A stretch of 64,000 nucleotides of DNA, taken from assembly GCA_963740495.1 (NCBI GenBank), contig CAVUEK010000006.1:604474-668473 (forward strand), in the 5' to 3' direction. This DNA is from an uncultured delta proteobacterium (GTDB lineage Bacteria > Myxococcota_A > Polyangia > Polyangiales > CAVUEK01). Positions 1-64,000 of this stretch are shown here, one piece after another. The notes under the pieces are model-generated. The model made no database searches. It had not been told where the DNA came from and worked only from the letters and a program-made list of their open reading frames with translations. The position numbers and the translations under genes were made by a program. Each line of letters starts with the position of its first letter. The first letter of the stretch is position 1.

Positions 1-1282
1 GCTCCGCGGACAGCTGGTCGACGGAGTCATCACGCGCGACCGCGTCGATCTCCTTCGCCGACGGGCGCAAGGCCGGCGCCTCATCCAGCGCGCCGAGACC
101 CTCCCGTCGCTCCTCGCGCGTGCCCGCCGCATCGCCGCGCGCACGTTCGTAGGGCTCGTCGGCGAAGAGCGGCTCGAGGTATGGCGCCGCGTGCTCGGGC
201 TCCCCTCGCCCGCGCCCGTGGACGTCGTCGACGCTCGCTCGTTCTCGCGCCCGGAGCCGCCGTCAGCCGTCCCGCTCGTCTACAAGCGCCTCTTCGTCGC
301 CGATACGCTCGAGGCTGCGGACGTTCTCACCGGTCGTGAAGCCGCGATCGAGCGCGCGAAGCGCGCATTGAGCGGAAAGACGGCGGGACGGCTTCGATCG
401 GTCGCGCTGGTCGGTCAGGACGGCGTGGGCAAAGGCGCGCTCTCGGCTGCGATCGTGCGCAGCCTCGGGTTCCGGGGCGTTCGACGCGTATCGTTCGACC
501 GGCCGGTCACTCGCGAGGCGATCGACGAAGCGTTCATCGACAGGCAGGACGGTCAGCTCTTCGTCGTCTCGGGCTTCCACTGGATCGTCGCGATGCGCAT
601 CGGCGGCTTCGAAGCTCTCAGCCACTTCGTCGACCGAGTGATCCGGGACGAGGGCCGAAACGCGTGGCTCGTGCACGCAGATCACCTGGTCTGGGACGTC
701 GCTTGTCAGGCCGCGCCCGTCGCCGACGCGTTCCCGGCGATCATCCGAGTCGAGACGCTCGGAGCGGCCGAGCTCGAGGCGGCCGTGCTCGCGCGCCACG
801 CGCTCAGCGGCTACGGGCTCAACTTCGAGCCTCGCACCGAGCGGACGCGGCTCGAAGAGATCTTCGCGCGCGGGGCGAGCCGCATCCGACGACCGTACGA
901 GAGCTTCTTCCGCTCGCTTCACACGGCGTCGGGGGGCCTGGTCCGCGACGCGCTCCGGCTCTGGCTCGCGTCCATCGACGAGGTCAACGAAGCAGCCGAC
1001 TTCGTGCGCGTCGGTGCCGTCCCGTCGTCGCCGCATGCGGCGCTCCGGCGTCTCCCCGAGGACGTGCTGCTCAATCTCTACCAGGTGGCCCGGCAGGGCT
1101 GGATGGACGCCACGGTGCAGGCGCAGCTCTATCGAGTCGACCCGACGACCGCCGAGGCGCAGCTCTCTCGCCTCGTCCACATGGGCTTGCTCGAGCCTCG
1201 CGAGCACGGGGCGTACCGGATCCCGGCGCACCTCCGCGGTCCGGTGTACCGCGTGCTATGCGAGAGAGGCTGGGTGCAATGA
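1..1282 (+). CDS. Hypothetical P-loop (GQDGVGKG) ATPase-like protein with C-terminal winged-helix-like region; 5' partial (frame open to window start)
   Basis: ORF 191..1282 is open upstream to nt 2 in the same frame. Walker-A-like VALVGQDGVGKGALSAAI. High GC3 codon usage. Confidence 0.45.
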   Translation, partial: LRGQLVDGVITRDRVDLLRRRAQGRRLIQRAETLPSLLARARRIAARTFVGLVGEERLEVWRRVLGLPSPAPVDVVDARSFSRPEPPSAVPLVYKRLFVADTLEAADVLTGREAAIERAKRALSGKTAGRLRSVALVGQDGVGKGALSAAIVRSLGFRGVRRVSFDRPVTREAIDEAFIDRQDGQLFVVSGFHWIVAMRIGGFEALSHFVDRVIRDEGRNAWLVHADHLVWDVACQAAPVADAFPAIIRVETLGAAELEAAVLARHALSGYGLNFEPRTERTRLEEIFARGASRIRRPYESFFRSLHTASGGLVRDALRLWLASIDEVNEAADFVRVGAVPSSPHAALRRLPEDVLLNLYQVARQGWMDATVQAQLYRVDPTTAEAQLSRLVHMGLLEPREHGAYRIPAHLRGPVYRVLCERGWVQ

Positions 1283-2440
1283 CGGCGCGATGCTCACGTA
1301 CGCTCGTGGACCGTGTCGCGCTCGCCCCGTTCGGCGCGGTCTCGACGCTCGCGCTCGCGCTCGCGCTCCACCCGGCGAGCGCCGCGGCCCAGGACGCGGG
1401 AACGATGGACGGCGGCGTCGTGAGCCCGGCCGACGCCGGCGCGCTCGACGGCGCGCCGCGCGACGCCGGCGGAATCCGATGCGGGCGACGCCATCCCCGA
1501 AGCAGGGGTCCCCCCCGACGCGATACCACTGACCGCTACCGACGCCGGGCCGCAGCGCGACGCGGGACCGAACGTCATCGTGGTCGTCACACCCGGACAG
1601 ACGCCTCCCGGCGCTTCCGAGCGAGAGCAGCCATCCGAGAACAGGAAGCCGCCGGGCGCAGGCAAGACGGACTTGGACTGGCTCGCGGGGCTCCCCGAGG
1701 GCCGATGGAGCGCGTTCGGTCTCGTCGTGCTCGTGCTCTTCGCGCTCGTGCTCGCTGGCGTCGCGCGGCGCGCGCGCGAAGCGCTCCCGTCCGAGGGTGC
1801 GCTGCCGACGCTCGTCGGCCTCGTCCACATCGGGTTTCAGCTCGTCGTCGTCCTCACGTCGCTCGCGATCGTCGCGCGGCTCCTGCCGGCATCGGTCGAG
1901 CCCGTGGTTCCGTGGGCGCTCGTCGCCGGAGCGGTCGCGGTCGGCTGGTCGGCGCGCGAGCTCTTGCCGGATCTCGTCGGGGCGCTCGTCATCGCGTTCG
2001 AGAGACGCGTCCGACCCGGAACGTGGGTGTCGGGTCTCGGATTCGCGGGACTCGTCGAGCGGCGCGGGCTCCGCGCCGTGTGGATCCGTGACGGGCACGG
2101 GAACCGGCTCGCCGTTCCGAATCGTCACGTCGTCGGGACGACGGTGACGATGCAGCTCGGCGGGGGTCCGGTGCACGAGGTCGCGCTGCGCCTTCGAACC
2201 GGACGGCCGGCGCGCGACGTTCGCAAGGCGCTGCGGGAGGCGACGTTGATCTCCCCATGGGTTCGCCCCGAAGCAGCTCCCCAGATCCGCCAAGATGGAA
2301 GCGACCCGGAGCTCTGGCACGTTCGCGCGCACCTGCTGGAGATGCGCTACGCCGCGGCGTTCGAGGGTGATTTGCTCGAGCGAGCCGAGGAGTCTCTCGC
2401 CGCGGCCGCGGCTCTCCGAGCGGCCGAGGACTGGGACTGA
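1279..2440 (+). CDS. MscS-family mechanosensitive channel with signal peptide and DAG-rich periplasmic N-terminus; apparent frameshift near 1465-1475
   Basis: ORF 1580..2440 has 3 TM helices followed by an MscS beta-domain (GTWVSGLGFAGLVERRGLRAVWIRDGHGNRLAVPNRHVVGTTVTM). ATG 1279 (ATGA overlap with upstream stop) encodes a signal peptide and DAG repeats in frame +1. The repeats continue in frame +2 after about nt 1470. Confidence 0.6.
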
Positions 2441-2442
2441 CG

Positions 2443-3481: not shown

Positions 3482-4539
3482 CTACTCGGACGCGTCCGGG
3501 CCCGTCCAGCGAGCGAGCTCGCCCGTGACGATGCGCGGCGCGCTCTGCAGATCCGCGACCGTACGGCTGCCCGTCAGCAGCATGACGGCCCGGAGCTGGG
3601 ACTCGACGCGGTCGAGGAACGCCGCGGCCGCGGCCTCGCCGCCGGCGGCGAGCGCCTTGTAGACGTTGCGCGCGATGCCGGCGCACGTGGCGCCGAGCGC
3701 GATCGCGCGGGCGACGTCGAGGCCGTGGCGGATCCCACCGGTGGCGATGACCTTCACGTCCTCGCGCACGGAAAGCACGACGGACGCCGCCGTCGGGATC
3801 CCCCAGTCCCAGAGCAGCGTGCCGAGCTCGCGCGCATCCCCGTCGGCTCGGAGCGTCTCGACGCCGACCCAGCTCGTCCCGCCGGCGCCGGAGACGTCGA
3901 TGACGCGAACGCCCACGGCGCGGAGCTTTCGCGCGGTCTCGCCGGAGACGCCGTTGCCCGTCTCCTTCGCGATCACGGGCACCGAGAGCTCGCTGCACAA
4001 GCGCGCGAACGTGTCGACGCCGCCGCGGAAGTCGCGGTCGCCGCCCGGCTGCACGAGCTCCATCGCCGGGTTCATGTGCACGCAGAGCGCGTCGGCCGAT
4101 ACCTCTCGGACGAGATCGTCGATCGCCGCGGTCGAGAGGTCGCGCGCCTGCACGACACCCACGTTCCCGAAGACGAGCGTCGTCGGCGCGTGCTCCCGCA
4201 CCGCGTACGTCCACGCGGACTCCGGGCGCTTCTGCATGGCGCGTTGGCTGCCGAGCCCGAAAGCATAGCCGCGCGCTTCGGCGAGCCGCGCGAGGGTCGT
4301 GTTGACCTCGGCGGCGCGGTCGGTCCCGCCGGTCATCCCCGCGATCACGATCGGGGCTCGGAGCTTCTTGCCGAGCAGGTGAACGCTCGTGTCGAGATCC
4401 TCGAGCGCGAGGTCGGGCAGCGACTGATGCACGAGGCGCACGTCCTCGAGGAGGGTCGTCCGATCCTTGAACGCGACCTCGTCGGTCGCGCACAGGTCGA
4501 GGTGGTCGACCTTGCGCTTCTCGAATCTCGCTCGTCATG
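3482..4539 (-). CDS. fni: Type 2 isopentenyl-diphosphate delta-isomerase (FMN-dependent IDI-2); frame discontinuity within first about 25 nt
   Basis: VHQSLPDLALEDLD...IAGMTGG...VIAKETGNGVS...ATGGIRHGLDVARAIALGA match IDI-2. Conserved N-terminus EKRKVDHLDL is in frame but lacks a start. The ATG at 4539 (MTSEIR) is offset by 1 nt. Confidence 0.8.
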
Positions 4540-8612: not shown

Positions 8613-9888
8613 ATGGCTACCTCGCGATTTCCAGGCTTCTACAAGCTCTCGCTCGCCGAGCGACGCGCGCTCGCCGCCGAGGCCCGGGGCATCTCCGCCG
8701 CCGAGATAGAGCGCACCTTCTCGGACGGCGGGCTCGACTGCGCGACGGCCGACAAGATGATCGAGAACGTGATCGGGACCTACGGGCTCCCGTTCGCGCT
8801 CGGGCTGAACGTGCGAATGAACGGTGACGACCACCTGGCACCGATGGTCGTGGAGGAGCCCTCTGTCGTCGCTGCGGCCGGCAACGCCGCGAAGATGATC
8901 CGCGAAGGCGGCGGCTTCACCGCCGAGGCCGACGAAGCGATCATGATCGCGCAGGTGCAGCTCGACGGCGTGCCCGATGCCGCCGCCGCGCGAGACGCGG
9001 TCGAGCGGGCGTGCGACGAGCTGCTCGCGCGCGCTGACGCGTCGGTCCCGAACCTCGTCGCGCGTGGCGGCGGAGCGCGCTCGCTCGAGGTGCGCGACGT
9101 CGGCGATGGGATCGTCGTCGTGCACATTCACGTGGATTGTCGCGATGCGATGGGCGCGAACCTCGTCAACACCGTCGCCGAAGCCGTCGCCGATCGCGTC
9201 GCCGAGCTCGCGCGCGGAACCGTGGGCCTGCGGATCGTCTCGAACCTGAGCGATCGCCGGCGCGTGCGCGTGCACGCGCGCGTGCCCGTCGCAGCGCTCG
9301 TCCATGCCGGAGAAAGCGGCGACGGTGTCCGCGACGCGATCGTGCGCGCCTCGCGCTTCGCGGAGCGCGACCCGTACCGCGCCGCGACGCACAACAAGGG
9401 CATCGATGAACGGCGTCGACGCGGTCGTCGTCGCCACCGGCAACGATTGGCGCGCCGTCGAGGCAGGTGCGCACGCGTACGCCGCGCGCAACGGCCGCTA
9501 CGAGCCGCTCTGCACGTTCCGAGTCGCCGAGGACGGAGCGCTCGCCGGCTCGCTCGAGATGCCGCTCGCGCTCGGAACCGTCGGCGGCCCCACGCGCGTC
9601 CACCCGGGCGCGCGCCTCGCGATCGAGCTCGCCGGCGTTACGAGCGCGCGCGAGCTAGCCATGCTCGCCGGCTGCGTCGGCCTCGCCTCGAGCCTCGCCG
9701 CCCTCCGCGCCCTCGCGACCGTCGGCATCCAGCGCGGCCACATGGCCCTCCACGCCCGCAGCGTCGCCAGCGCCGCCGGCGCCCGCGGCCCCCTCGTCGA
9801 GGTCGTCGCCGCGGCCATTCACCAAGCCGGCACCATCACCCTCGAAGCGGCGCAGGTCGTGCTCGCCGACATGCGGGTCTTGGGATGA
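8613..9888 (+). pseudogene. mvaA: Class II HMG-CoA reductase, interrupted by a 1-nt insertion at about 9405 (between ...ATHNKGI and [27 protein letters not shown])
   Basis: N-terminal 265 aa in frame 0 (MATSRFPGFYKLSLAERR...HNKGI). C-terminal 160 aa in frame +1 (MNGVDAVV...). DNA reads aag ggc atc g atg aac ggc. Confidence 0.8.
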
Positions 9889-9910: not shown

Positions 9911-11849
9911 CTAGCTCTCGGTCCCCGGCTTCGTCTGCCAGAAGAAGAAGCCGAGCATGGCGATCGACGCGAGCAGTGTCACGACCGCGGGCGTCGCGAG
10001 GGCCTCGCCGATGTCGAGGTTCTGCCAGACGAGGAACGCGATGAGCACGCCGACGAGCGACTCGCCCGCGATGATGCCGGAGGAGAAGAGCACGCCACGG
10101 TGCATCGCCTTGTCGAGCGCGCGGTCGTCGTCGATGCCGCGTCCGTGAAAGTGCGCCATCAAGCCGCCGGCGAGGATCGGCACGGCGAGACCGAACGGCA
10201 GGTACATGCCGACAGCGACGGGCATGAGGTGAGTGCGGAAGCGCGACTTTCGTTTCGCGAGGTACGCGTCGAGCCCTTCGATGACGAGACCGAGCACGGC
10301 GCCGATCATCACCATCCCCCACGGCAGGTGCCCGTCGCCGAAGAACGCGTTCGCGAGGCTCGCGAAGAGCTGGGCCTGCGGCGCGGCCAGCTCCTGTGAC
10401 CCGATGCCGTAGCCCTTGTGCAGGACCTCGAGCACCGGCGCCATCACGAGCGACGCCACGGCGACGCCCATGATCTGCATGATCTGCTGGCGCCGCGGGC
10501 TCGCGCCGACGAGGCTCCCGGTCTTGAGGTCGTTGCAGACGTCGCCCGATGTGCACGCGGCGCAGCACACGACCGCCGCGACGCCGAGCGTCGCGAGCAT
10601 GCCCTCCATGCCGGTGAAGCCGAAGAGAGCGAGCAGGCCCCCGGTGAACAGCACCGCCGTGATCGTCATCCCGGAGACGGGGCTATTGCTGTTCCCGACG
10701 AGGCCGACGATGTAGCTCGCGACCGCGACGAAGAAGAACGACATCACGATCATGATCAGCGTCGTCGGGATCGTGATCGCGAGATCGCCCGTGAACGCGT
10801 AATAGATCCCGCCGATCAGCAGGATCGACGCGATCGAGAGGCCGATGATGGCGTTCGCCGAGATGTCGCGGTCGCGCTCGTCGATCTCGGCGTCGCCGTC
10901 GCGGCGGCTGGCGCTCTTCTTGAGCTCGACCACGGCCTGCACGAGACCGTGGCGCACGCGGACGATGGAGAAGATCCCCCGACGACCATCGCTCCGACGC
11001 CGACGTACCGGATCTCTCGCTCCAGATCTCCCACGCCCTGTCCACCGGCACGTCGGGCAGCGCGATCTGCACGCCGAGCCCCTCGACGCCGAGCGAGTGA
11101 CCGACGCTCGCGAGCATCGCGTCGAGATCCGGAACGAGCGGGAGGAGCACGACCCAGCTCAGCACGCCGCCGATGAACACGAGCACGGCGACGTTGAGCC
11201 GCACGATGTACCCGACACCGACGAGCGCCGGCGAGATGTCGCCACCGAAGTAGAGGATGCGACCCGCACCCACGCCGGTCGCGGCCTCGAGTGTTCCGAC
11301 GAAGACGTGCAGATACCCGGTCGCCGCCTTGAAGAGCGCGCCGACCCCGGCGCCGACGACGACGCTCCACGCGTCGCGCTTCGCGCCCGGGTGATTCGCG
11401 TCTCCCGTCTCGAGCACGGCCGCGCACGCGACGCCCTCGGGATACGGAAGCTCGGTGTTGTTCGCGACGAACACCTTGCGCATCGGGATCATGAACAAGA
11501 TCCCGAGCAGCCCTCCTGCGAACGCGATCAGCGTCGTCGTCCAGAAGTCGAAGTCCTGCCACGCGCCGATGAGCACGATCGCGGGCATCGTGAAGATGAT
11601 CCCGGCCGCGAGCGACTCGCCCGCCGACGCCGCGGTCTGGACCTGGTTCGCCTCGAGGATCGTCCCGTTCCGGAAGAGCCCGCGGAGGATCAGCATCCCG
11701 ACCACTGCCGCCGGGATCGACGCCGACACGGTCATCCCTGCCTTGAGCCCGAGATACACGTTCGCGGCGGCCATCACCACCGAGAGCACGAGGCCGATGA
11801 CCACGGCGCGTACGCTCAGCTCGCGAACCTGGGCCACCGGCATCGCCAT
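9911..11849 (-). pseudogene. OPT-family oligopeptide transporter, two 1-nt deletions (about 10978 and about 11012) splitting it over three frames
   Basis: N-terminal half in ORF 10683..11921 (GLKAGMTVSASIPAAV..). Short middle segment REIRYVGVGAMVVGG in a second frame. C-terminal half in ORF 9911..10957 (GLVQAVVELKKSAS...). Paralogous to the intact OPT at 14626..16452. Confidence 0.7.
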
Positions 11850-20958: not shown

Positions 20959-23767
20959 ATGCCCGCCATGCGTAGTTCCTCGATGTCGGCGATCACGCTT
21001 TCCTTCTTTTTCCTGGTCGCGGCGTGTGGCGACGACGACGTGTCGAGCGGTGACGGCGGCCCGGACGCCGGCGTCGAGACCGACGGCGGCGGCTTTCGCT
21101 GCCGCGTCCCGGACGTCGTCTTCAGCGAGCCCGTGATTGGAATGACACCCGGCGTCGTGCGGCGCCCCAACGTCGAGCTCGCGCTCGATTTCTGCGAGGC
21201 GACGACGATCACACTCGAGTCGAGCGACCCTTCGGTCGCGACCGTGTCGCCGACGGCTTCGCTCGAAGCGCGCCACACGCGCGCGAGCATCGACGTCACC
21301 GGCGTCGCGCCCGGCACAGCAACCGTGACCGCGACGTTCGTCGCCTTTCCCGACGAGACGCGAACCGCGACGCTCGACGTGATCGTGACCGACGCCGCGA
21401 TCCCGCCATGCGACGGAACGGCGAGCGGTAACGTCGCACCGGGCGGCGAAGTGCGCGTCGAGTCCGGCTCGCTGACGGGGGCGTTCGCTGCGGTGGCCTC
21501 GGGCGCGGCGGCGGACAACGTCTACCACGTCGACCCGTTCACCGTGGACATCGGGTGCGCGGCGGATCAGGTGCCGGACGGCTTCATGGCGCTCGGGCCG
21601 GCGGTGAGCTTCGGGCCCGCGTACCAGCGCTTCGCGCGCGAGATCCAGCTCGGCCTGCCCTACCGGCCGTCGCTGCTACCCGAGAACGCGAACCGGGGGC
21701 ACCTCGAGGTCAGCTACACGGGGCCGGGCGTGACCGAGCCGCGAATCGTTCCGGTGGCCGTCACGAACATCCCGCTCGGCGGCGACGCAGTCTTCGAGAT
21801 GGAGGTGCCGCGCCTCGGCACGTACCAGGTCGTCGCGCGCTCCACGGCGGGCCAGACCCGCGAGCGCCAGATGACGTTCCGAGGGATCGTCGGCGCCTCC
21901 ATGGGCGGCATCGGCACGGGCGTCGTCGGGTTCCACAACCCGGAGGTGTGGGACTTCGTCGCACCGCTCGGCGCGGCGTGGGATTGGGCGTACCTGCTCG
22001 AGTACATCCACGACTATCACATGGGCGGCTTCTGCACCGACGAGGAGCGCGGCGATCGATCCGAGCGCGTGCAACGCCGCCGACGTGACGCGCACCCCGC
22101 CGACCCGGTGGGAGCACGAGGTCGCACAGGACTACGAGCACTGGTGGTACGACGAGGGCATCAGCGGCTCGGGCCAGGGCTCGCAGTTCGATCGCCGCGA
22201 GTACTCGAACATCTTCCGCGACCTCGCGTACATGTACGGCAACGCGAACACCGACCACGCCGACGACCCGCTCGCGCCGAACATCACGCCGCCGGGCGTC
22301 CCGGACAGCGAGCGGATGCGCACCGACGAGGACCGATGCGCCAACCCCGTGATCATCCCGCCGGCCGACGGAAGCCCCGGCACGGGCTTCTACGACGACG
22401 AGTACAACCCCGACGGCGCGTACCCCGTGATCACGTTCTGCGAAGGCGGCGAGGTCGTCGTCGACGGCGAGCGCGACATCGGCGTCTGGGACCCGAACGA
22501 CGTCAACGACTATCCGCTCGAAGTCGCGCTCGCCGTCGACATCAACGAGAACGGGATCCGCGATCCCGGCGAGCCGGTGATCCGCGACTTCCACGAGCCG
22601 TTCGACGACTGCGGCCTCGACCGCGAGTGCGATGCCGACGAAGCGGGCTACGACCCCGTGACCAACCCCGATCCCGCCGGCGATGACTACGACCCGCAGT
22701 ACAACGCGACCGGGACCGAAGGGAACTTCCTCCGCGACGGAGATGCCTGCGACGCGACCGGCGGCGAGGCGTTCCTCGACTTCGGGCTCGATGGGCTGCT
22801 CGGCACGCCACAGCTCTCGGACGGCGGCTTCGACCACGGCGAAGCCAACGGGTGCTACGACATCACCCGCGGCGCACAGCGCATGATCGACCGCGGCCCG
22901 AAGCACTTGGTGCTGCGCGCCGACGAGAACGATCTCCGCGACATCGACGTGTTCGGCGACGGCGGGATCCGGGACCTCTTCATGGCTGCTACCGCGGCGA
23001 ACCACACGTTCTCGGCGTTCCCCGCGCGCAACCGACCTCTTCGCTACCTCAACGGGCACTCGCGTTTTCATCTCGACGGGCGTCCGCAAGACGACGGCAT
23101 GTTCGATTTCGCCAGCGTCCACTGGTTCGAGACCGGGCCGGATGTGCTCGTCCGCTACGGCAACGTCGACGCCGACGCGGCGGACTACGAGGGCGGCGAC
23201 GGTGCGCACGTCGGCACGCTCATCCAGGCCGTCAACCGCATCCTCAGCCCGATGGTGTGGATGAGCGCGCGCTGGCCCGGCGGCGACCGGCAACGCGTGA
23301 CCGACATGCTCTGCCGGACGGGCTCGGGGTGCGAGAACCCAAACCAGGTCCTGTTCGACTTCACGGCGCCGACGACCGGACGCACGGGGCCGGTGTCGAT
23401 CATCCTGCCGCCGGGCTACTTCCAACCCGAGCACGCCGACGAGACGTACCCCGTGATCTATTTCCTGCACGGTTACGGTATGGAGCCGCAGCAGCTCATC
23501 GACGTCGCGATCCTCACCTGGAACTACATGATCGCGACGACGCTCCCGGAGGCCCGGCGTCTGCAGAAGATGATCTTCGTCTTCCCGGACGGCCGCTGCC
23601 GCACGACAGGTGGTCAGCTCGAGTGCTTGAAGGGCACGTTCTTCACCGACGCGCCCGAGAGCACCCCCGGCGGCGCGCAGATGGAGACGTTCCTCCTCGA
23701 TCTCGTCGACTACATCGACGAGACCTACCGCACGCGGACGGCCGAGACGGTCACCGTCATCGAGTGA
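20959..23767 (+). pseudogene. Large lipoprotein with Asp-rich (Ca-binding-like) repeats and C-terminal putative esterase (alpha/beta hydrolase) domain; 1-nt frame disruption at about 22050
   Basis: Lipobox FFFLVAAC. Frame +1 ORF 20959..22686 and frame +2 ORF 22085..23767 join (...CTDEERG / IDPSACNAADVTRTPP...). C-terminal VIYFLHGYGMEPQQ is esterase-like. Confidence 0.55.
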
Positions 23768-30853: not shown

Positions 30854-31102
30854 ATGGCGAGCATCACGATCCGCAACCTCGACGAGGCGCTGAAGCGCCT
30901 TCTGCGGATCCGAGCGGCGCAGCACGGTCGGTCGATGGAACAGGAGGCGCGCGACATCCTGCGCTCGGCCCTCTCGCGAGCCCCGACACCACCCCGAGAT
31001 CTCGCGGAGGCCGTTCGGAATCGTTTCGCCCCCTTCGGGGGAATCGAGCTGCCGGAGATCGAGCGAACACCGCCGCGACCGCCGCCGCCGTTCGAGCCCT
31101 GA
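30854..31102 (+). CDS. vapB: VapB/FitA-type antitoxin (plasmid-stability-protein-like DNA-binding antitoxin)
   Basis: MASITIRNLDEALKRLLRIRAAQHGRSMEQEARDILR is characteristic of FitA/VapB. Stop 10 nt upstream of the vapC start. Confidence 0.7.
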   Translation: MASITIRNLDEALKRLLRIRAAQHGRSMEQEARDILRSALSRAPTPPRDLAEAVRNRFAPFGGIELPEIERTPPRPPPPFEP

Positions 31103-31111
31103 GCGAGCCCG

Positions 31112-39940: not shown

Positions 39941-40018
39941 GCCCACGACCGGATGTTCGGCTCGCCTCGTTGCTACTGTCGAATTGTCAGCTATATGGAC
40001 GAGCCTCGCGGACATTCG

Positions 40019-40798: not shown

Positions 40799-41628
40799 GA
40801 GTGGCGTCACGCCACTCCACGCCCTCAGCGGACACTCGGGTCGCAGGCTCCTGAAGCTCGAGGGGCCAAACCCCACCGGCTCCATCAAGGACCGGCTCGC
40901 CGAACATCTGCTCACGACGGCCCGCGCGCGTGGCGAGTTGCACGCCGGTCAACCAATCGTCGAGGTCACGACCGGAAACACGGGGGTCGCGCTCGCGAGG
41001 GTCGCCCAACGCTTCGGTAGCCCGCTGGAGCTGATCGTCCCTGAGGGTCTGCCGGATGGCATCTTGTCGCGCCTGGCCCCATATCGGGCAACCGTGACGG
41101 TCATCGACCGGGAGGCTGGCGTGGAGGCCGCGATGCGTCTCGCGCACGAGAGGCGATTCCATGGCTACTACTGGCCCGACCAGTATGGAAACGCGGAATC
41201 GTCGCGGTCGTACGTGGGGCTCGCGAACGAGCTGCGGGTCCATCCCCGTGATAGACGAACTGTTCGCAGCGGTCGGTACGGGCGGGACGATCATGGGTGT
41301 CGGCCTCCACGTGCGGCGCCGCGATCCGCACGTGCGCATCGTCGCCGTCGAGTCATCCGAGATGGACATCGAGGGAATGCGAAATACCCGCATTGCGCAT
41401 CGTGGGAGTAGTGATCTCTACCAACTCGACTTCCCTGACGAGACCGTGCGCGTCACGAGGACGCAAGCGCAGGCGGGGCTCGACGCTCTCCGACGGGAAG
41501 GGATCACCGCGGGCTTGAGCTCTGGCGCGGTATTCCACGCTGCAACGCAGACGATGGCGCACGGAACGACCTCGGTGCTCGTGTCTGCGGATGGACGAGC
41601 AGAGTTGCCCGATCCCACGCGGAGCTGA
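40797..41628 (+). pseudogene. Cysteine synthase (CysK/CysM)-fold PLP-dependent enzyme, frame disruption at about 41240
   Basis: GSIKDR, TTGNTGVALA in frame 0. IPVIDELFAAVGTGGTIMGVG in frame +1. ATGA start overlap with the ThiF-like gene. Confidence 0.65.
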
Positions 41629-41634
41629 TTACTG

Positions 41635-42315
41635 ATGACAGCAAGCGACAACATCTGGACACGGTTCGCCGTCTCCTATGACCGAGTGCTCGGCAACTGG
41701 AGCGAATATCAGCGTCTTAGCGAGGAGATGCGTCGTCACTTACCCAAGAACGGCAAGATCCTCGACGTCGGCTGTGGGACAGGACTGATCGCGATTCCTC
41801 TCACCAAAGACGGCTGCGAGGTCCACGGCATCGACAACAACGACGAGATGCTTGCGCGCGCGCGGCTGAATGCGGGGTCTGCCCTCGGGACGTCGATGCA
41901 CCTGGACAACGGAGATGCCGAGGAGCTTGCCTTCGCGGACTCCTCGTTCGACGGTGTGATCGCAAACAACGTCATATTCTACGTAGCCAGCCCGGCGCGC
42001 ATGATTTCCGAGGTACGCAGAGTCCTGAAGCCCTCGGGCGTCTTCGCTGTCTCGGGACCGACGCCGCACCTGGACATGAGAAAGCTCATCGACCAGATCA
42101 CCCGGGAATTTCGGGAGAGAAACATTTACGACGAGCTCAAAGACGACCTCGAGCACTTCGTCGCGTGCAGCGCGCAGTTGAAAGCGACGGGAATGCCGAA
42201 CGTCTACTGGGCCGCGCAGCTCGAGGCTCTGCTTCTGGAGGCCGGCTTCGACGAAGTGCTGACGTCGCGTGAGGATCTCTATCTCGGAGAGAGCTACCTC
42301 GTCGTCGTGCGTTAG
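41635..42315 (+). CDS. Class I SAM-dependent methyltransferase
   Basis: ILDVGCGTGLIA motif I, acidic loop GIDNNDEM, motif post-I DGVIANNV. Low GC. Confidence 0.75.
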   Translation: MTASDNIWTRFAVSYDRVLGNWSEYQRLSEEMRRHLPKNGKILDVGCGTGLIAIPLTKDGCEVHGIDNNDEMLARARLNAGSALGTSMHLDNGDAEELAFADSSFDGVIANNVIFYVASPARMISEVRRVLKPSGVFAVSGPTPHLDMRKLIDQITREFRERNIYDELKDDLEHFVACSAQLKATGMPNVYWAAQLEALLLEAGFDEVLTSREDLYLGESYLVVVR

Positions 42316-42317
42316 AC

Positions 42318-43973
42318 CTAGGTCGAGCCTTGCACGTGCTCGACGCTGGGTGACATCGACCGCAAATAGTCGTAGTGCTGAGGCATCGCGGAAGCGATCT
42401 CGGCGCTCCGGACCGCTAACTGGGCGAGGGCGCGCTCTCCCATCTCGAAGCCGAGGTGATCGAGCAGCGGGTATGGTCGGCGCGGCAAGCGGTCATACCC
42501 GTCCAAAATGCAGGTGTAGCTGAACGCCGGGAACACGCGCAGCCTCAGCTCGTCGAACACGGGCAATTCGACTCGAAGAGCTCCAGTTTCTCTTGGAGAG
42601 TCGGGGGTAGCTCCACGGAACGTGCTGCCGTCCAGAACTCCGAGTTCGTCCGCTGCGAGAGGACATAGTGCATCACGATGAAATCACGAATGTCTTCGTA
42701 CATCTCGCGCACCGTCTCGTTGTACTTTCGGATTCGTCCGGAGTCGAACGCGAGAGAAGGAAACAACGTCAGAAGAGTGGCCAGCCCGTATTCGATCAGA
42801 AAGATGCCGGTCGACTCGAGTGGCTCGAGGAACGAGGCCGACAAGCCAATGGCGACGCAGTTCTTGACCCACCGAATTTCCTCGTCCGCCCGATTCGCAT
42901 CGGGATGTGCCTCGCATCCGTGTCGGACGCGCGGGGTCCGAGGAACGCCCGCAGCTCTTGCTCCGCGCCTTCTCTTGAAAGCGCACCGCTGCTGTATACG
43001 TAGCCACAGCCGTTGCGGTGCATCAGGGAACGTCCCAGGCCCAGCCGGCGGTCAGAGCAGTGGACGTCGTGTACGGGGCGATCCCATCTCGGTCGGGGTC
43101 GTTCGTTGCTGGTAGCGCAACCGCGGCATCACACAACAGCACATTGCTGTCGCTCAGGAAGGGTTCTTGGAGCGTTCGCTGCAGCAGAGCACCGCGAAAC
43201 CCAGTGCAGTCGATGAAGAGGTCGCCTTCCACATTGGCGCCTCCTTTAGTGTGCAGCGCCTTGATGAAACCCCGCTCATCGAGCTCCACGGAAGTGACAT
43301 CGTCCACCACGTGACTGACACCGCGCTCGATCGCGAGCCCGCGGAGCAACCGCGCCAGGGCGACCGCATCGAAATGATATGCGGTGCTCTGATTCATGTC
43401 CGGATTGCTCGGATGAATGGGCGACTTTCGCGCCATGCAGAGTGCGACGTTCGGCGCGATCATCTCGGCCAGCGATTGCGACGCGCCTTCGAGCCGGCGA
43501 CGATGAGCATAGTGAAGAAGCGAAACGCGCGTACCGATCTGCTGGAAGTACGGACGCTCGAATGGAAGTACCGCAGGCTCGGGGCGTTGCGTGAACGGAT
43601 GCCAGAAGTGGTCGTCGGTCTTTCGGGCGGGATCGACCCAATCCACGAACTTGATCGCTGCCTTATATGTCGCACCCACCTTTGGCATCCACTCCGCGTC
43701 CGCGAGGCCGATGAAGCCGAGCGTCGTCCTGAGAGTCGGGATCGTCGCCTCCCCCACCCCCACTCCTGGAATGTCCTTAGACTCGACTAACGTGATCGCG
43801 ATCGACTCGCCCAGGGCCCTTTGCAGATAGGTCGCCGATAGCCAGCCCGCGGTTCCGCCGCCGACTATCACGATTCGCTCGATCCGACCGTCCATCACTC
43901 GCGGATAGCCGACAACATGTGCGTTCGCAAGGGCGCTGAGTACGCGTAGGGTTGCAGAGGCTTCGTACGGCAC
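42318..43973 (-). pseudogene. Flavin-dependent tryptophan-halogenase-family protein, at least 3 frame disruptions (about 43015, about 42850, about 42555)
   Basis: GGGTAGW and GEATIP in ORF 43023..43973. GYVYSSGALSREGAEQEL in ORF 42796..43023. SFLEPLESTGIF in ORF 42545..42844. C-terminus in ORF 42318..42566. Confidence 0.7.
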
Positions 43974-46991: not shown

Positions 46992-48146
46992 ATGATCGAC
47001 TATCGCGCTTACCCCGTTCTGTACGTCGACGATGAGCGCGCCAATCTCGTAGCCGTACGCTACGCGCTCGACGGAATGTTCGAGCTGCTCACGGCTTCGA
47101 ACGGAGAGGAAGCGCTGCGGCTCCTCGCCGAGAACTCCGCGATCGCCGTGCTCCTCTGCGACCAGCGCATGCCGGGGATGGACGGCGTCTCCGTGTGCGA
47201 GGCAGCCCGCCGCGTTCGGCCGGACGCGATTCGGATCATGATCTCGGCTTACGCAGATCTTCACGCCGCGATCGATGCCATCAACCGCGGTCAGGTGTCG
47301 CGCTACGTTCGCAAGCCGTTTCAGAACGAGGACCTCGTCGAGATCCTGCGCACCGCGATCGAGCTCGTGCACATCCAGCGAACGCTCCAAGACATGGAGG
47401 TTCGCCTGCTGCGTGTCGGCCAGAATCCGAGCGGCGCAGCTGTCGAAGCCGATGTGACCGACGAGCTCGCGCGTCTCGTCGGAGAGCTCCGGCTGAAGGC
47501 GGAGCGTTCGTCCGCTCTCGCGGGCGCCGCCGCGCTGAGCCTCGACGAGAGCCCCCCGCGCCCTCGGGAGATCCTCGACGAGATCGCCGAAGTGGCCAAC
47601 GACACGAGCTCGTTGGCTCGTCAGCTCGAGGACTTGGTCGAGCGCCTACGCCAAGCAGAGGCGGAAAGCTCACCCGATGCGTACTGCTTCGTCGACCGCG
47701 TCGTCGAGTCGACGACCGGCATCCTCCGGCCGGAGGTCCAGCGCGTGGCCCGCCTCCGCGTGATCTCCGAGAGCTCACCCCGCGTTCGGATGGACCCGTC
47801 GGTGCTCGGCCAGGTCCTCACGAACCTCTTGCTCAACGCGGCGCAGGCGCTTCACGGACGCTCTCGCGACGACGCCAGCATCACCGTTCACGTCGCCGAG
47901 CAGAACGGCCGTGCCCTTCTCACCGTGAGCGACGATGGGCCGAGCGTCCCACCCGAGCTCGCCGCTCTCGTGCTCGACTCGTCCGTCTCTGGAACGGACG
48001 GCGGAAGCGGCCTCGGCCTGACGGTCGTCCGGGAGATGGTGGCCCGTGCCGGCGGGACGGTGAACGTCGCGTCGAGCGCCGGCGGGACGACGTTCACGGT
48101 GGACCTGCCGCTCCGGCAATCGACGAGCCCCCCGCCGCCCCGGTGA
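46992..48146 (+). CDS. Hybrid REC / histidine-kinase-like ATPase protein, paralog of 36391..37551
   Basis: N-terminus MIDYRAYPVLYVDDE... about 65% identical over 140 aa to the 36391..37551 protein. HATPase motifs LLLNAAQA, DDGPSVP, GGSGLGL. Confidence 0.8.
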   Translation: MIDYRAYPVLYVDDERANLVAVRYALDGMFELLTASNGEEALRLLAENSAIAVLLCDQRMPGMDGVSVCEAARRVRPDAIRIMISAYADLHAAIDAINRGQVSRYVRKPFQNEDLVEILRTAIELVHIQRTLQDMEVRLLRVGQNPSGAAVEADVTDELARLVGELRLKAERSSALAGAAALSLDESPPRPREILDEIAEVANDTSSLARQLEDLVERLRQAEAESSPDAYCFVDRVVESTTGILRPEVQRVARLRVISESSPRVRMDPSVLGQVLTNLLLNAAQALHGRSRDDASITVHVAEQNGRALLTVSDDGPSVPPELAALVLDSSVSGTDGGSGLGLTVVREMVARAGGTVNVASSAGGTTFTVDLPLRQSTSPPPPR

Positions 48147-49799: not shown

Positions 49800-50893
49800 T
49801 CAAGATCGGCTGCGCGCGGTCCGATCGATCGCGTGGAGGATCCCGAGGAGCGCACGGAGCTCTCCGGCGAGAAGACGCAGCTTGCCCAGCCACGCGCGCA
49901 GCCCCGTCGTTCCGGTGTGCGCATAGAGACCGGTGACGCGGACCTCGGCGTCGACGTGGGCTGGGAGCGCGGCCCGGAGCCGCTCGGCCTGCGTGTACGG
50001 GATGACGTCGTCGTCCCGGCCGTGGACGACGTGGACGGGACACCGCAGCCCGTCGAGGTGAGGCCGCGGATCGAGCGTCGCGAGAAACTCGTGCGACCCG
50101 TCGAGCGCTTCGAGCGCGATCGCGTCGGCATCGTCGCCGATGCCGCAGCCCACGAGGAAGCTCTCCCGCTCGTCGTCGGGGAGCGCACGGGCGAGCTCGC
50201 GCGCGATCGGCTCGAAGCGCGAGCGCTCTTTCAGCTCCGGGTGGCCCCACGTGCGACGGACGTACGCGTCCCACTGTGCGAGGACGCGGGTGGGATCGGG
50301 TGGCAGGCCGCGCACGCGATCGAGCAGGTTGATGAAGACCACGGGGCGATTCAACGGATCGTGCGCGAAGCCCGGCTCGCCCACGATGCAGAAACGGATC
50401 GTCTCCACGATGTCCGCATAGCCGCCGAACACGACGAGACCCGCGACGCGCTCGCGGTGGCTCTCGGACGCGGCCACGCGCAGCGCAGGGAACGACCCGA
50501 ACGAGATGCTGAAATCCCGAGCTTGCCCGCGGGCCGCCCCGCGCGCGATTCGAGGAAGTCGAACGCGCGCGCGGTGTCGCGCACGAGCGTCGTCGCGACG
50601 CGGAGCTTCGCGAAATCGGGCAAGAAGGGCGCGCACACGAGCACGCCCGACGCGGCGAGGATCGCGGCGAAGCGGTCCATGCGCGGGTCGTCCGCGCCCG
50701 CGTAGTGGAGGCCCTGGACGAGCAGGAGCGCTCCGGTCGGGGCCCGCCCCCGGGGGCTGTACATGCGCGCTCGCATCGGCCGGTCGTCCACCCGCTCGAC
50801 CGGAACCTCGACGTCCTCGCGGTCGACGCCGTCGGGCACCTTGCCCGACGAGGTCCACGGACCCAGCCAGAGCGCGAGCCGCGTCAGGGACAT
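49800..50893 (-). pseudogene. Alpha/beta hydrolase (dienelactone-hydrolase-like), 1-nt deletion in a G run at about 50517
   Basis: N-terminal part in ORF 50351..50959 (GALLLVQGLHYAGADDPR). C-terminal part in ORF 49800..50858 (VVFGGYAD...HVVHGRDDDVIPY). Confidence 0.55.
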
Positions 50894-51458: not shown

Positions 51459-52087
51459 CTACATGCTCTCGAGGATCCGCTTCACGACGTCGTAGTCGTG
51501 GGCGCGCACCGCGCCGGTCCGCGCGCAGCGGACCTTGCCGTGCGCGTCGACGAGCAGATGGATGGGCAGCGTCGCGCCTGCGTCCAGACCGACCGTAGGC
51601 GCCCACTCGCCGAATCGTCGATGCGATCGGCGACGCGGAGCGACTCGGGCACGGTCGGGTGCTCGCGGCGAAACCCGGCGACGTCGTCGTCGGTCTCGTC
51701 CGCGGACACGAACAGCAGCTCGACGTCGATGCCATCGCCGCGAAGGCGGTCCTTCCACTCGACGAGCATCGGCATCTCCTCCACGCAAGGCCGGCACCAC
51801 GTCGCCCACACGTTGACCCAGCGCCTCACGTGGCTCGGCTCGAGCGAGCCCGCCGCGAGCGCGGGCAAGCCCAGCGGAGGGCCGCCGCGGCAGCCGGGGC
51901 GGCCTCGCAGAACTCGTCCGCAGGATCGGCCTCCGGCCGAGCGGCCACAGCGATGACGCGGCTCGGCGGCGCGCCGGTGCTCGGGGTGTCGTCGCAGCCT
52001 GGGACGAGCCGCTACGCCGAGCCCGAGGGTGAGCGCCACGGCGCGAGCGAGCGGCGCGCGCGACCTCAGAGCCGGCAATCGATCCAT
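51459..52087 (-). pseudogene. TlpA/ResA-like thioredoxin-fold thiol:disulfide oxidoreductase (WCRPC), at least 1 frame disruption near 51600
   Basis: VNVWATWCRPCVEEMP in ORF 51482..52087. C-terminal GEWAPTVGLDAGATLPIHLLVDAHGKV in the ORF ending 51459. Confidence 0.5.
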
Positions 52088-52089
52088 GC

Positions 52090-52766
52090 GATGAACGCGC
52101 TCCGGTTGAGGTCGTCGGGCCGCAGCTGCGGCCGCTGCCGCTGCGGCGCCAGTCGCAGAAGCTCTGATCGAGCTGGGCGAACTCCTCGCCGAGCCAGAGC
52201 AGGCCGACCTGTTGCTGCGAGGTCCGGGTCGTTGAAGGTCTCGCTGCGAGGTGGGCCATCACGGCCTCGGCGCGCTGCGTGCTGAGCTCGCGGTTGGCTC
52301 GGCCGAGCCCTCGGGCGACGCGCGCGACACGACGAAGAAGTAGCTCGCGCCGCGCTGATCGGCGAAGACGCGATCGACGAGCTGTCGCGTCGGCCGCGTC
52401 GAGCTCGGCGGACGCTTGCTCGAACTGGATGATCGCGCCGCGGTCCTTCATCGGGAGGAACAGCGCGTTGAAGTCGGCGCCGCTCCATCGTGGCGACGTT
52501 GCTGCGCCTCGACCGGCTGGCAGCCGCGCCCGCCCTCGCCGCCGATGAGCCCGCAGCTCTGAGCACGCGGCGCAGGATGCGCTTGAGCTCCGGCGTGCAA
52601 TACGACTCGTTCGCTTCCTGGGCCACACCCGCCTGGGGGCGCTCGCTCGCGGTCGCTTCTTGCTCGTCGAGCCGCGCCGACGCGGCGCCGGTCCACGAGA
52701 CGACGGCGACCACCGGAAACGCGAGGACGACGATCGCCACGATGGCGGCGACGATGAGGTTGCGGG

Positions 52767-52770
<4 letters not shown>
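52090..52770 (-). pseudogene. Hypothetical N-terminally membrane-anchored protein, frame-disrupted; possibly the N-terminal part of the downstream thioredoxin protein
   Basis: TM anchor MTRNLIVAAIVAIVVLAFPVVAVV. Plausible segments in two frames. Boundaries uncertain. Confidence 0.25.
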
Positions 52771-54440
<1,670 letters not shown>

Positions 54441-54498: not shown

Positions 54499-55450
54499 TC
54501 AGGCTTCGCTGCCATCCCGACGTCGCTCGAGCCAATCGAGCACCCGCGCCTCGACGTTGATTCCCGTGAGACGGGACATCTGCTGTATTCCCGTAGGGCT
54601 CGTGACGTTCACCTCGGTCAGGTAGCGGCCGATGACGTCGATGCCGGCGAACCACAGACCGTCGGCTCGCAGGCGCGGCGCGATGTGGGCGCAGATCTCG
54701 CGATCGCGGTCGGAGAGCTCGCACGCCACCACTCTGCCGCCGACGTGGATGTTGCTCCTCACGTCGCCTCCGCTCGGGATCCGCAGGATGATCCCGATCG
54801 GCTCGCCGTCGACCAGGAGAATGCGCTTGTCGCCCTCGGCGACCTCCGGGAACGAGCTCCTGAAGCACCGCGACCCGCGTCCCGTTCCGCGTGACGGTCT
54901 CGACGATCGCGTTGAAGTTCCCGTCGTTCGCACGAAGCGCGAAGACGCTCTGCCCGCCGTGACCGTCGACCGGCTTCAGGATCGCCTGTCCGCCCATCTC
55001 GCCGACCAGCGAGCGGATCCGCTTCTTGTCCGAGGTGACCACCGTGCGCGGCATCAGCTCGGGGAACCAATGCGTGTAGAGCTTCTCGTTCGCCTCGCGC
55101 AGCCCGCGAGGGTCGTTCACGACGAGGGTCTTGCCGCGCAGATGCTCGAGGACGAGCGTCAACCAGAGGTATTCGTCGTCGAACGGCGGATCCTTGCGCA
55201 CGAAGACGACATCGACCTCGGAGAGGTCCACCTCGACCGCGTCGCCGAGCGCAATCGGGTCGCGCGCGTCGCGCTTCATCGTCGCTCGGCGGACGACCGC
55301 CTTCGGTCGGTCGACGTCGAGCAAGACATCGCGCAAGAGACAGTGATCGACGCGATGACCTCGCGCCTGTGCTTCGAGCATCAGCGCGAACGACGTGTCC
55401 TCGTCGACGGCCACGGTCGAGGGCGGGTCCATGACGAACACGATGTGCAT
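54499..55450 (-). pseudogene. gshB: Glutathione synthetase (ATP-grasp), 1-nt insertion at about 54848
   Basis: N-terminus MHIVFVMDP..SSFALMLEAQARGH. C-terminal ORF 54499..54933 [13 protein letters not shown]...[11 protein letters not shown] in a shifted frame. Confidence 0.75.
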
Positions 55451-55460: not shown

Positions 55461-56067
55461 TCAGTGGGCCCAGGTGCTTCCGTCGGTCCGGTCGAGCCCG
55501 AGCTCGGCGCGCACGGCCTCCAAGAATCTCGTCCCGCGTGGACGCGTCGTCCACTGCGCGGGCGAGCAGGAGAGCGCCGGTCCACGATGCGAACGTCACC
55601 AGTACCCTGCGACGCGCCGCCGCCGGGTCTCCGCCGAAGCGCGCGACGTGCGCGTCGACGAGCCGGAGGAAGCGTTCGCGGAACGCGGCGCGGACGCCTC
55701 TGGGCGCGCGTGCAATCTCGCCGCCGAGAGACGGGATCGCGCACCCCGCTTGCGGGTGCTCGACGTGCGACACGCTCAGGTAGCGCTCGCTCGCCGCGCG
55801 CAGGACCTCTTCGCCCTCCATCCCATCGAGGCCACCGAGGAGGTTCTGCTCCGCTTCGTCGAACGCGCTCCGCAGGGCTTCGGCCATGAGCGACCACTTG
55901 TCGCGGAAGTGCGCGTAGAAACCGCCGTGCGTCAGCCCCGCGGCCGCCATCACGCGATCCACGCCGGCGCCCGCGAACCCCTTCGATCGCGCGATCTTCG
56001 CGGCCGCCGCGACGATGCGCGCTCGGCTCCGGGCTTTCCGTTCTGCGACGGTCACGAGTCCACACAT
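55461..56067 (-). pseudogene. TetR-family transcriptional regulator, 1-nt insertion at about 55525
   Basis: HTH AKIARSKGFAGAGVDRVMAAAGLTHGGFYAHF. Plausible C-terminus LEAVRAELGLDRTDGSTWAH-stop only in the +1 frame. Confidence 0.6.
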
Positions 56068-62182: not shown

Positions 62183-62220
62183 CGAGGCGAGCGCGGGCCG
62201 CGCGCCAGCGCGGCCCAAGC

Positions 62221-62318: not shown

Positions 62319-62320
62319 GC

Positions 62321-63834
62321 TCAGAACATGGGCGCGATGGCGCCCACGCGATCGGTGGGGTTTGGCACCTCCCCAGGCGCGGCGGCGCCGACCCCGACCG
62401 CGTCGAGCGCCGCCGCGAAGACGGGATCGTTCGCGGCGGCCGCGCCTCGACGCTCAATCCCGGTGTCCCACGCGCCGGTCGCGACGGGAGCGAGCCGGCC
62501 ACTGGCATCGAGGCTACCGGCAATCGCGCCGAGCCCGTCCGCCGTCGAGTCGACCGTCACCCCCGTGAAGGTCGGTCCGACCGCCTCGCCGGCGAGGTCG
62601 AGCACGATGCCCGCCCTTTCGTTCGCCACCAGATCGCACCGCTCGAACAGACCGCTCGTCGAGCCCATCAGATGAATCCCGTCTCCAATCCGGATCGCAC
62701 CGATGCCGCCCACCGCGCGAAGCGACTCGCGCGTCCCTTCGATGCGCGCGTCGCTCACCGACACGTCGTTCGCATCCACGGCCACGATCGACGCGAACGC
62801 GTTGTCGGCGAAGTGCGTCGCGGCTCCCGACAGGGAGAGCTCGCCTTCGCCGACCCAGACCGCCGCGTCTCCGTTGCCCGTCGCGTCGAGATCCTCCAGC
62901 ACCGCGCTCGAATCCGAGCACGAGCACGCCGTACCTGTCGTTGTCGTGAACGCCGACGGCTCGGCCCGTGAGCGTCGCGCCGTCGGTCGCGATGACTCCA
63001 TAGACCGGCTCGCCCCGGACGCCTTGATGCGTATCCGCGACGTCGACGAACTCGAGGTCGACGCTGCCACCGATCTGCCGGATGGCGACGCCCAACGTGT
63101 CGCGCACGCTCCCCCGGCTCCACGTGCCGTCGACGTCGCGAAGCACGACGCCGAAGCTCGCGAACCCGTGGACCTCGAGGTCCGTCGCGTCAATCGTGGT
63201 GCGCTCGGCATAGAGGCCGTACGCCGCCGTCACGACTGCCCATTTACCCGCTGCGTCGCAGACGCGTCCATCCGCGCCGGTGTCGCCGGGCGTGCAGTCG
63301 CAGGCCGTTCCGTCCGGACACTCGCCGGGCGGCGGGGCCGCCGGCGCGACGCGGAGCCAGCTCGTGTCGTCCGCATTGCCGGCTGTGACCGGACCACCGA
63401 GAATCCACGCTCGAGAGCGACAACGCACCCACGTCTTGCACCGCGAGCGCCACCCCCCGCGTCGCCGTCACGCTCACGTCCTCGACGACGGCGCCGCCAC
63501 CGGCCAAGACCAGGACGCCAATCCGGCCGTCGGCGCGCACGTCGAGCTCTCGGACGCGCGTGGCGGGCTCGCCGGCGCGCAGAACGACGCCGACCGACCC
63601 TTCGGCGGCCAGGACGGTCGTGCCCGAGCGGCCGGCGAGCGTCACACCGCTCGGCACCACCAGCGGGCCCGCAATCTCGCAGGCGCCGAGGGCGACGGTT
63701 TCGCCGGGCGCGGCCGCGTCGAGGGCGCTCTGCGCCGCCTCCGCATCACAGAACGGCCCGTCCGACGCGCACCCGGCCGACGCGCTCAGCGCCGCCAACG
63801 CGGCCACGAACCGTACGCGCCCGGTCCTGGACAT
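62321..63834 (-). pseudogene. Secreted right-handed beta-helix lipoprotein, 2 frame disruptions (about 63410 and about 62910)
   Basis: Lipobox ALSASAGCAS in ORF 63244..63990. Middle in ORF 62514..63428. C-terminal in ORF 62321..63211. Repeat-rich beta-helix pattern. Confidence 0.5.
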
Positions 63835-63906
63835 GCGGAGACATAGCACGGGGCCCCGCGCGGACCAGAGGCGCGGGCGGCGCGCGCTGCTACGCTCGTC
63901 CCGGCC

Positions 63907-64000
63907 GTGGGCTGCCTCGATCCCAGCGAAGTGCGAGACCTCGTGCGGGGCGCGGTCGCCCCGGCGCGGCTCGCCGCCATCGACCTCCACCTCGACGGTT
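63907..64000 (+). CDS. 5' fragment of a gene encoding the zinc-finger-like VGCLDPSEVRDLVRG...HLD N-terminal motif typical of myxobacterial anti-sigma/kinase-associated proteins (partial)
   Basis: GTG start. Motif CLDxxxLxxLxxGxxxPxxxAxIDxHLxxC. Runs off the window end. Confidence 0.25.
   Translation, partial: MGCLDPSEVRDLVRGAVAPARLAAIDLHLDG

Follow-up and report, generated by a model that had tools for sequence, protein, structure and literature searches.

The subject of this analysis is a stretch of 64,000 nucleotides (hereafter the window) from contig CAVUEK010000006.1, positions 604,474 to 668,473, in the assembly GCA_963740495.1 of an uncultured delta proteobacterium placed in the Polyangiales, in which many conserved genes are interrupted by single-base shifts of the reading frame. 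We find at least 29 one-base insertions and deletions (indels) in the window and conclude, with a probability of roughly 0.9, that these breaks are artefacts of assembly or consensus calling and neither pseudogenes nor any other real biological feature. Single-base edits turn the broken genes back into full-length, orthologue-like proteins. Most of the isolated breaks lie at or beside GATC, and the breaks that are not isolated are crowded into two short stretches.

Results

Frame breaks were located with a codon log-odds model that was trained on long intact open reading frames (ORFs) and decoded by the Viterbi algorithm across six frames plus a non-coding state. A preliminary description of the sequence had listed 19 disruptions and estimated their number at about 20. 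The model switched frame, without an intervening stop, at all 19 (0–20 nt from the positions first given), and homology supported most of them; for the breaks in an MscS-like gene (1472) and a TetR regulator gene (55524), the evidence is the codon model and the restored ORF alone. The idea that the genes are continuous and that their translations had been mis-registered fails, as alignments to homologues split between frames at the sites examined, and the relatives' own orthologues are single-frame at every one of these sites. The original count proved too low, because two further breaks occur in a TlpA-like gene and eight more in a neighboring 234-aa ORF. The minimum is therefore 29, of which 15 are insertions and 14 are deletions; they affect 14 of approximately 55 genes, and about 25% of the window's gene calls are truncated, fused or in the wrong frame. 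The long genes first described as intact are indeed single-frame when compared with orthologues, among them the genes of a 955-aa kinase and a PilZ protein and the four that lie between idi-2 and the HMG-CoA reductase (HMGR) gene in the mevalonate operon. Run with a low penalty, the frame model also called switches at a FitA/PIN junction (31062–31101) and within the halogenase gene (43492–43529), which were rejected by inspection as false positives.

Every lesion is a one-base indel, and single-base edits restore full-length proteins with 48–78% similarity to orthologues. The repaired OPT transporter, halogenase, PALP and ThiF-like proteins each give one contiguous Pfam match over nearly the whole model, with a score close to the sum of the fragment scores, and no in-frame stops or larger deletions were found in the repaired genes. 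The broken genes are also as well conserved as their intact neighbors. Compared with one relative (locus L025), the broken genes are 77% (idi-2), 73–78% (HMGR) and 66–74% (OPT) identical, and the intact polyprenyl synthase, MK, MDD and PMK genes are 64%, 63%, 64% and 53% identical, respectively. Two of the affected genes, HMGR and idi-2, belong to the mevalonate pathway and a third is gshB; full-length orthologues of these genes are present in the relatives examined. We infer that HMGR, idi-2, gshB, OPT and the other broken genes are intact in the organism.

The breaks had been described as non-uniformly distributed, and this observation holds. Seven of the 19 listed sites fall within 3 kb (p = 0.002), and when all 29 are considered, 11 fall within 1 kb, a density that was reached in 0 of 20,000 simulations. 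The first cluster spans 40.39–43.03 kb (7 sites, indel rate ~0.27%) and the second spans 51.87–52.56 kb (10 sites, ~1.4%), which leaves 12 isolated sites over the remaining ~61 kb (~0.02%). In both clusters, the sequence contexts are mostly short homopolymer runs of C, G or T, or have no obvious motif.

About eight of the 12 isolated breaks are at or beside GATC. The changes are of three types: GATC becomes GAATC or GATTC, GATCT becomes GATT, or a G that directly precedes ATC is missing. Plain proximity to GATC is of little value as evidence, because the tetramer occurs 565 times in the window, and we used a test on the pentamer instead. GAATC/GATTC is present in 59 copies, which places 1% of positions no more than 5 nt from a copy, yet six breaks fall exactly on it (1472, 4523, 51612, 55524, 62910 and 63401; binomial p = 4e-7). 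Moreover, in five of the 15 insertions the added base itself gives rise to the pentamer, which is improbable (p = 6e-6) even under a model in which every insertion merely repeats an adjacent base. All five of these pentamer insertions read GAATC on the plus strand, but this asymmetry has a chance probability of 1 in 16 and is not significant. Natural GAATC sites exist, and not all copies are errors. An intact pair of genes at 30854–31531 (plus strand), which encodes a FitA-like ribbon-helix-helix antitoxin and a PIN toxin, contains GAATC in frame at 31018 and 31041.

Orthologues resolve the altered base at two sites. The idi-2 gene (FMN_dh family, minus strand) carries one extra base at codon 5/6 (4523–4527), where the plus strand reads GAATC and the coding strand reads GAG-AT[T]C-GAG. 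The N-terminus in the window, MTSEI followed by EKRKVDHL, corresponds to MSSEIEKRKVDHL in L025 (which starts MSSEIEKRK), and the alignment to the L025 orthologue picks up from residue 6 at 4522. Intact genes of the window use ATC for isoleucine 247 times and ATT only 13 times. Because the orthologue requires Glu-Ile-Glu and ATC is so strongly preferred, the original sequence was almost certainly GAG ATC GAG, with GATC read as GATTC. The second resolved site is in an alpha/beta hydrolase gene (50511–50516, minus strand), which has lost one base: coding GGG AT[C] TTC AGC reads GGGATTTCAGC. The alignments of ten metagenomic relatives change frame at 50513, and the repair restores an invariant FSISFGS. 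The conserved (V/L)FSISFGS needs ATC TTC, and thus GATCTTC was read as GATTTC. The preliminary description had placed this loss in a CCC run, a position that the ten relatives do not support. The GATC case draws on the statistics, on these two orthologue-resolved sites and on recurrence in other assemblies.

To look for recurrence, the same frame model was run on loci fetched from relatives. Long-read metagenome-assembled genomes (MAGs) were recognized by Flye-style contig names; for this small sample, contig names and PMC12313526 served to infer whether the platform was short-read or long-read. The GATC signature, with GATC read as GA(A/T)TC or GATCTC as GATTC, was found at frame breaks in two further long-read Myxococcota MAG loci, in three cases at or beside conserved motifs. 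In L001 (MFD05684, contig_45020), GGC GAT CTC reads GGCGATTCTC at 16940, between the GD and L of a GGDEF domain, and GGG ATC GAC reads GGGATTCGAC at 13828. In L022 (contig_6130), CAG ATC GGC TGC reads CAGAATCGGCTGC at 3665, directly before a CxxCH motif; GAT GGA TCG reads GATGGAATCG at 8544, directly before the GxGxxG loop of a ThiF protein; and GAT CTC CTC reads GATTCCTC at 18040. In approximately 290 kb from other high-GC, mostly short-read relatives (k141 and NODE contigs, Joint Genome Institute records and one isolate scaffold), five sharp frame-switch candidates were called and the pentamer was present at none of them.

The remaining isolated breaks were examined gene by gene. The MscS-like gene (plus strand) has one extra base at 1472–1476, where it reads GAATC and GGATCC is expected, which shifts the frame from +0 to +1; deletion of A1473 yields a 379-aa ORF. 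In the TetR regulator gene (minus strand), an extra base at 55524–55528 displaces the last ~21 codons; the plus strand again reads GAATC and the coding strand GAG AT[T]C TTG GAG. The OPT transporter gene (minus strand) has lost two bases. At 10976–10980, coding GGGGGG-ATC reads GGGGG-ATC, and at 11012–11016, a base is missing just 5' of ATC, such that GAG AGn ATC CGG reads GAGAGATCCGG. Only 37 nt are available for 13 orthologue residues between 10975 and 11013, which requires two 1-nt losses. Both deletions are directly 5' of ATC, and as AGn-ATC reads AG-ATC, the lost base may be G. The repaired transporter gives a single Pfam match over 2–623 of 623 positions (360 bits).

HMGR (plus strand) is an exception to the GATC pattern, as CAT(G) is read as CGAT(G). 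Residues 1–264 of the orthologue finish at 9404 and residues 265 onward begin at 9406, so the G at 9405 is one base too many and breaks the conserved HNKGIMNG at GGC ATC g ATG AAC. The Pfam match (PF00368) is split into 2–251 and 253–368, and after repair the protein (424 aa) shares 75% identity with HMGRs of 430–440 aa across 99% of its length. The added G at 9402–9407 stands between C and AT and gives ATCGAT (CATCATG reads CATCGATG). A lipoprotein gene with Big_2 and esterase regions (plus strand) has one extra base in GCGGCGATCGATCC at 22049–22057. Which base is extra is ambiguous: five relatives (920–966 aa) fit frame 1 to 22050 and frame 2 from 22049–22070, depending on the relative, and the protein has 935 aa after repair. 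One possible reading of this ambiguous site (22051–22060) is a change of the HMGR type, in which GGCATC reads GGCGATC. Insertion of G between C and AT may be a second recurrent miscall context, with at most two cases. The gshB gene (minus strand) carries one extra base, either C or G, in coding TTCCCGGAGG (CCCGG) at 54846–54856. Its GSH-S_ATP Pfam match lies in two frames (1–84 and 78–174), and the repaired ORF stops after 314 residues. The preliminary description had explained the HMGR, gshB and TetR breaks as single extra G residues. This explanation stands for HMGR; in TetR, reading the change as GATC to GATTC gives the same protein, and in gshB the choice between C and G is ambiguous.

A beta-helix lipoprotein gene (minus strand) has two extra bases, at 62910–62914 and 63401–63405, and the plus strand reads GAATC at both. 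The repaired protein aligns to P0241 without gaps across both sites, and its Beta_helix match extends from 30–141 to 2–142. A public protein in NCBI/ENA, P0242, called from a contig of 1,069,227 bp, is the window's own beta-helix gene (~63250–64000 and beyond). It is a 445-aa chimera in which an N-terminal extension that is out of frame precedes the true N-terminus of the beta-helix protein; after ...SLSSVD comes a tail in the wrong frame, which begins exactly at the 63401 break. P0242 thus shows that the frame breaks are part of the deposited sequence and have already spread to protein databases.

The denser of the two clusters lies in a triad of genes on the minus strand (51462–54440) that encode a VKOR-family protein, a 234-aa protein and a TlpA/Redoxin-like protein, in an order that is conserved in the Sandaracinaceae relatives L020–L024. 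The VKOR gene had first been labeled ggt, but its product is a VKOR-family membrane protein (PF07884). The TlpA-like gene has lost one base at 51612–51616, where the plus strand reads GAATC and coding GAT[C]TC is plausible. Its orthologues align in two frames, 51471–51608 and 51626–52117, and the Redoxin match grows from 33–82 to 33–137 after repair. Comparison of three frames with the orthologues in L020, L022 and L024 uncovered the two additional breaks in the N-terminal part of this gene, namely one base lost at 51871–51888 (~51881) and one extra base at 51994–52012 (~52002). The repaired protein is 51–56% identical to these orthologues.

The neighboring ORF at 52066–52770 (minus strand, 234 aa) has its start and stop in one frame, yet it contains eight compensating 1-nt indels within ~450 bp, so that the reading frame is wrong across most of its central part. 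Comparison of frames with three orthologues placed base losses at 52111–52127, 52238–52254, 52288–52305 and 52553–52566, and extra bases at 52206–52221, 52380–52392, 52473–52488 and 52495–52507. Each frame segment still matches the orthologues. The raw ORF is 33–35% identical to them (93–99 bits), and four of the eight repairs raise this value to 58–59% (249–259 bits). Because this ORF hides eight indels, an intact ORF is no guarantee of correct sequence in this assembly. In the adjacent VKOR ORF, the codon statistics of the C-terminal ~80–110 codons (52770–53102, minus strand) resemble those of non-coding sequence, and this part is not similar to orthologues; it may be a variable tail or may contain further hidden indels.

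The other cluster coincides with a four-gene island at 39953–43940, which has the PilZ-domain gene on one side and the gene of the 955-aa kinase on the other. GC content is 68–73% nearly everywhere in the window and drops to 61–64% at 40–44 kb, and the island itself has a GC fraction of 0.61–0.64. It encodes a ThiF-like protein, a PALP (CysK-like) protein, an S-adenosylmethionine (SAM)-methyltransferase, which is intact, and a protein of the Trp-halogenase family, and it resembles a small accessory cluster for biosynthesis. PilZ and the kinase are ~2.6 kb apart in the closest relative, L001, compared with 4 kb in the window, and none of the genes of the island found a match in that interval. 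L002 has a halogenase after PilZ, on the PilZ strand, whereas the window's halogenase is on the opposite strand.

Seven indels fall within the island. The ThiF-like gene (plus strand) has lost one base at 40387–40400 (in a C5 run, or the G before AGATC), gained one T at 40484–40488 (TTTTT where TTTT is expected) and lost another base at 40580–40611 (in the C5 run at 40583, or at GATTC at 40607). The three repairs extend its Pfam coverage from 1–120 to 1–225 of 238 positions. The PALP gene (plus strand) carries one extra base at 41241–41247, probably in the CCCC run. Its Pfam match is split between two frames (6–150 and 156–281), and after repair becomes a single match over 6–281 (152.6 bits). 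The halogenase gene (minus strand) has lost one base at 42564–42574 (coding GAGTCGAATTG), slips by −1 at 42869–42879 (coding AAATTCGGTGG; either a loss of one base or a gain of two), and has lost one base in a C run at 43026–43028, where coding GTT CCC[C] TG ATG gives DVPLMH. The L002 orthologue aligns to the window in four frame pieces, with 56–58% identity in the first three and 43% in the short last one, and the repaired halogenase gives one Pfam match over 1–455 of 458 positions (455.8 bits).

The nearest protein relatives of the window are Sandaracinaceae/Polyangiales (Myxococcota) MAGs, and identities to them are only 63–75%. The 955-aa kinase is 63% identical to its counterpart in MAG MFD05684.bin.2.251, and the best identities among relatives are 67% for VKOR and 75% for HMGR. 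Searches of the available collections with VKOR, repaired HMGR, repaired beta-helix and kinase proteins as queries found no sequence from the same species. The sole 100% match in the near-identical-protein searches was P0242, the mis-framed gene call from the window's own assembly. The window also contains two divergently oriented paralogues, at 36391–37551 (minus strand) and 46992–48146 (plus strand), each with a response-regulator receiver and a HATPase_c domain. They are 53% identical and stand on either side of the segment that holds PilZ, the island and the kinase gene.

Discussion

The preliminary description left two explanations for the frame breaks, namely indel errors in the underlying assembly or many recent pseudogenes that extend into the mevalonate pathway. 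Our results strongly support the first. The second is not supported, given that the lesions are uniformly one base long and the broken genes are as well conserved as the intact ones. The window most likely comes from a long-read assembly, a MAG of a Sandaracinaceae/Polyangiales myxobacterium built from Nanopore reads only. MAGs of the MFD series were produced in this way, from Nanopore data alone with Flye assembly and a single Medaka round (PMC12313526). Frameshifted gene calls are a known result of indels in Nanopore consensus sequences, and bins below ~40x need polishing (PMC9262707). Leftover errors in Nanopore assemblies have been linked to GATC methylation, low coverage and high GC content (PMC12392509, PMC11610603).

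We propose that the consensus retains uncorrected one-base indels from two superimposed error processes. The first would be stochastic and confined to two poorly supported stretches, where errors remain at a rate near raw-read quality. Such stretches could arise when the consensus is built on very few or heterogeneous reads, either through low local coverage or through strain heterogeneity, and the 40–43 kb island is perhaps present in only part of the population. The second would be a systematic miscall at or beside GATC that survives polishing and acts across the rest of the window. Its cause could be a DNA modification of the Dam type, N6-methyladenine (m6A), or a bias towards certain k-mers in basecalling or polishing. 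Judging from the sequence pattern, we consider the odds of a link to methylation to be about even.

Several observations weigh against this interpretation. The artefact is inferred and not observed, by comparison with relatives of which the closest share 63–75% protein identity, and the sequencing platform of the assembly is likewise deduced. The codon score alone leaves the identity of the extra base ambiguous at several GAATC sites. Methylation-linked Nanopore errors in print are mostly substitutions and not 1-nt indels (PMC11610603). In addition, an Acidimicrobiaceae MAG from the MFD series (L013, MFD05521) showed eight candidate switches in 22 kb, none of which is near GAATC/GATTC; this was a noisy automated scan, and the switches could reflect errors in a different context or a poor fit of the codon model. 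Finally, the 40–43 kb cluster sits in a lower-GC island of dispensable-looking genes, where real decay is possible.

This last point leads to the alternative that fares best, although we regard its chances as small: most breaks would be artefacts, but some of the seven at 40.4–43.0 kb would represent real decay of a horizontally acquired cluster. The low GC content of the island, the shorter L001 interval in which no island genes were matched and the different halogenase strand in L002 all fit with acquisition, and the break density is ~10x the isolated-site rate. However, the repaired halogenase is orthologue-like and covers the whole Pfam model (456 bits), the methyltransferase gene is unbroken although it lies mid-island, and the island genes contain no stops or larger deletions. 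Decay is also not needed to explain clustering, because the denser cluster at 51.87–52.56 kb lies in a conserved operon of normal GC content.

It is slightly less probable still that the breaks are genuine recent pseudogenes throughout, whether through relaxed selection, a mutator deficient in mismatch repair or genome decay. The frameshifts do stand in the deposited record, several occur in short homopolymer runs where replication slippage also operates in vivo, and the densest of the listed clusters is the lower-GC accessory island. Genuine decay, though, also produces nonsense codons, deletions and raised divergence, and spares essential pathways. Here, 29 frameshifts are accompanied by no nonsense codons or larger deletions once repaired, and the broken genes are no more divergent than the intact ones. 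Eight compensating indels within a single 700-bp gene, with all segments orthologue-like, are not an outcome of decay. HMGR, idi-2 and gshB, which are assumed on general grounds to be essential in this lineage, are genes of core metabolism that are struck in a 70%-GC genome with large multidomain genes; decay would not be expected to reach them in a free-living type of organism with a large genome. Around a quarter of the window's genes would be lost while their orthologues are intact in all relatives. The identical GATC signature in two unrelated long-read MAG loci, and its absence from the other, mostly short-read relatives, also argues for errors introduced by sequencing.

The recurrence of that signature could instead point to an in vivo process in Sandaracinaceae that targets indels to GATC, for example through error-prone processing of nicks or modified bases. 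The frameshifts would then be real in several lineages, which we consider very improbable. In a milder variant, the breaks would remain artefacts that report an unusual GATC-specific DNA modification common to these bacteria. Programmed recoding, by ribosomal frameshifting or transcriptional slippage, could in principle bypass one-base shifts and has nothing more specific in its favor; it is excluded because orthologues are single-frame at every site examined and the sites have no slippery heptamers or long A/T runs, and shifts of both +1 and −1 occur, up to eight per gene.

If these are consensus artefacts, then the deposited sequence is misleading when taken at face value. It would describe a free-living myxobacterium without a mevalonate pathway, without glutathione synthesis and without a quarter of its genes, which is the wrong conclusion. 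The GATC-linked indel signature has now been seen in three or more loci from public long-read MAGs of Myxococcota and could be used to flag or repair errors, and it hints at modification of GATC in these organisms. The value of the finding is as a warning for quality control, and its biological interest is small.

The frame breaks may be compared with three known phenomena. Decay pseudogenes, such as those of Mycobacterium leprae and host-restricted Salmonella, share with the window many frameshifted genes that have recognizable homologues, but differ in their nonsense codons, deletions, divergence and sparing of pathways, none of which is seen here. Nanopore errors at methylation motifs, with Dam GATC as the example, resemble the isolated breaks in that they affect a short palindromic m6A target, survive polishing and recur (PMC12392509, PMC11610603), although the known cases are mainly C-to-T and G-to-A changes and those in the window are 1-nt indels. 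Indel errors in long-read consensus sequences (Nanopore, or PacBio continuous long reads) differ in one respect, as only a minority of the breaks in the window are in homopolymers of ≥4 and the isolated ones are dominated by non-homopolymer GATC contexts. In other respects the likeness is close: the changes are one-base indels, some of them in homopolymers, that leave truncated and fused gene calls in public databases (PMC9262707, PMC12007338), become denser in stretches that presumably have low coverage, and can be reversed by one-base edits that restore the genes.

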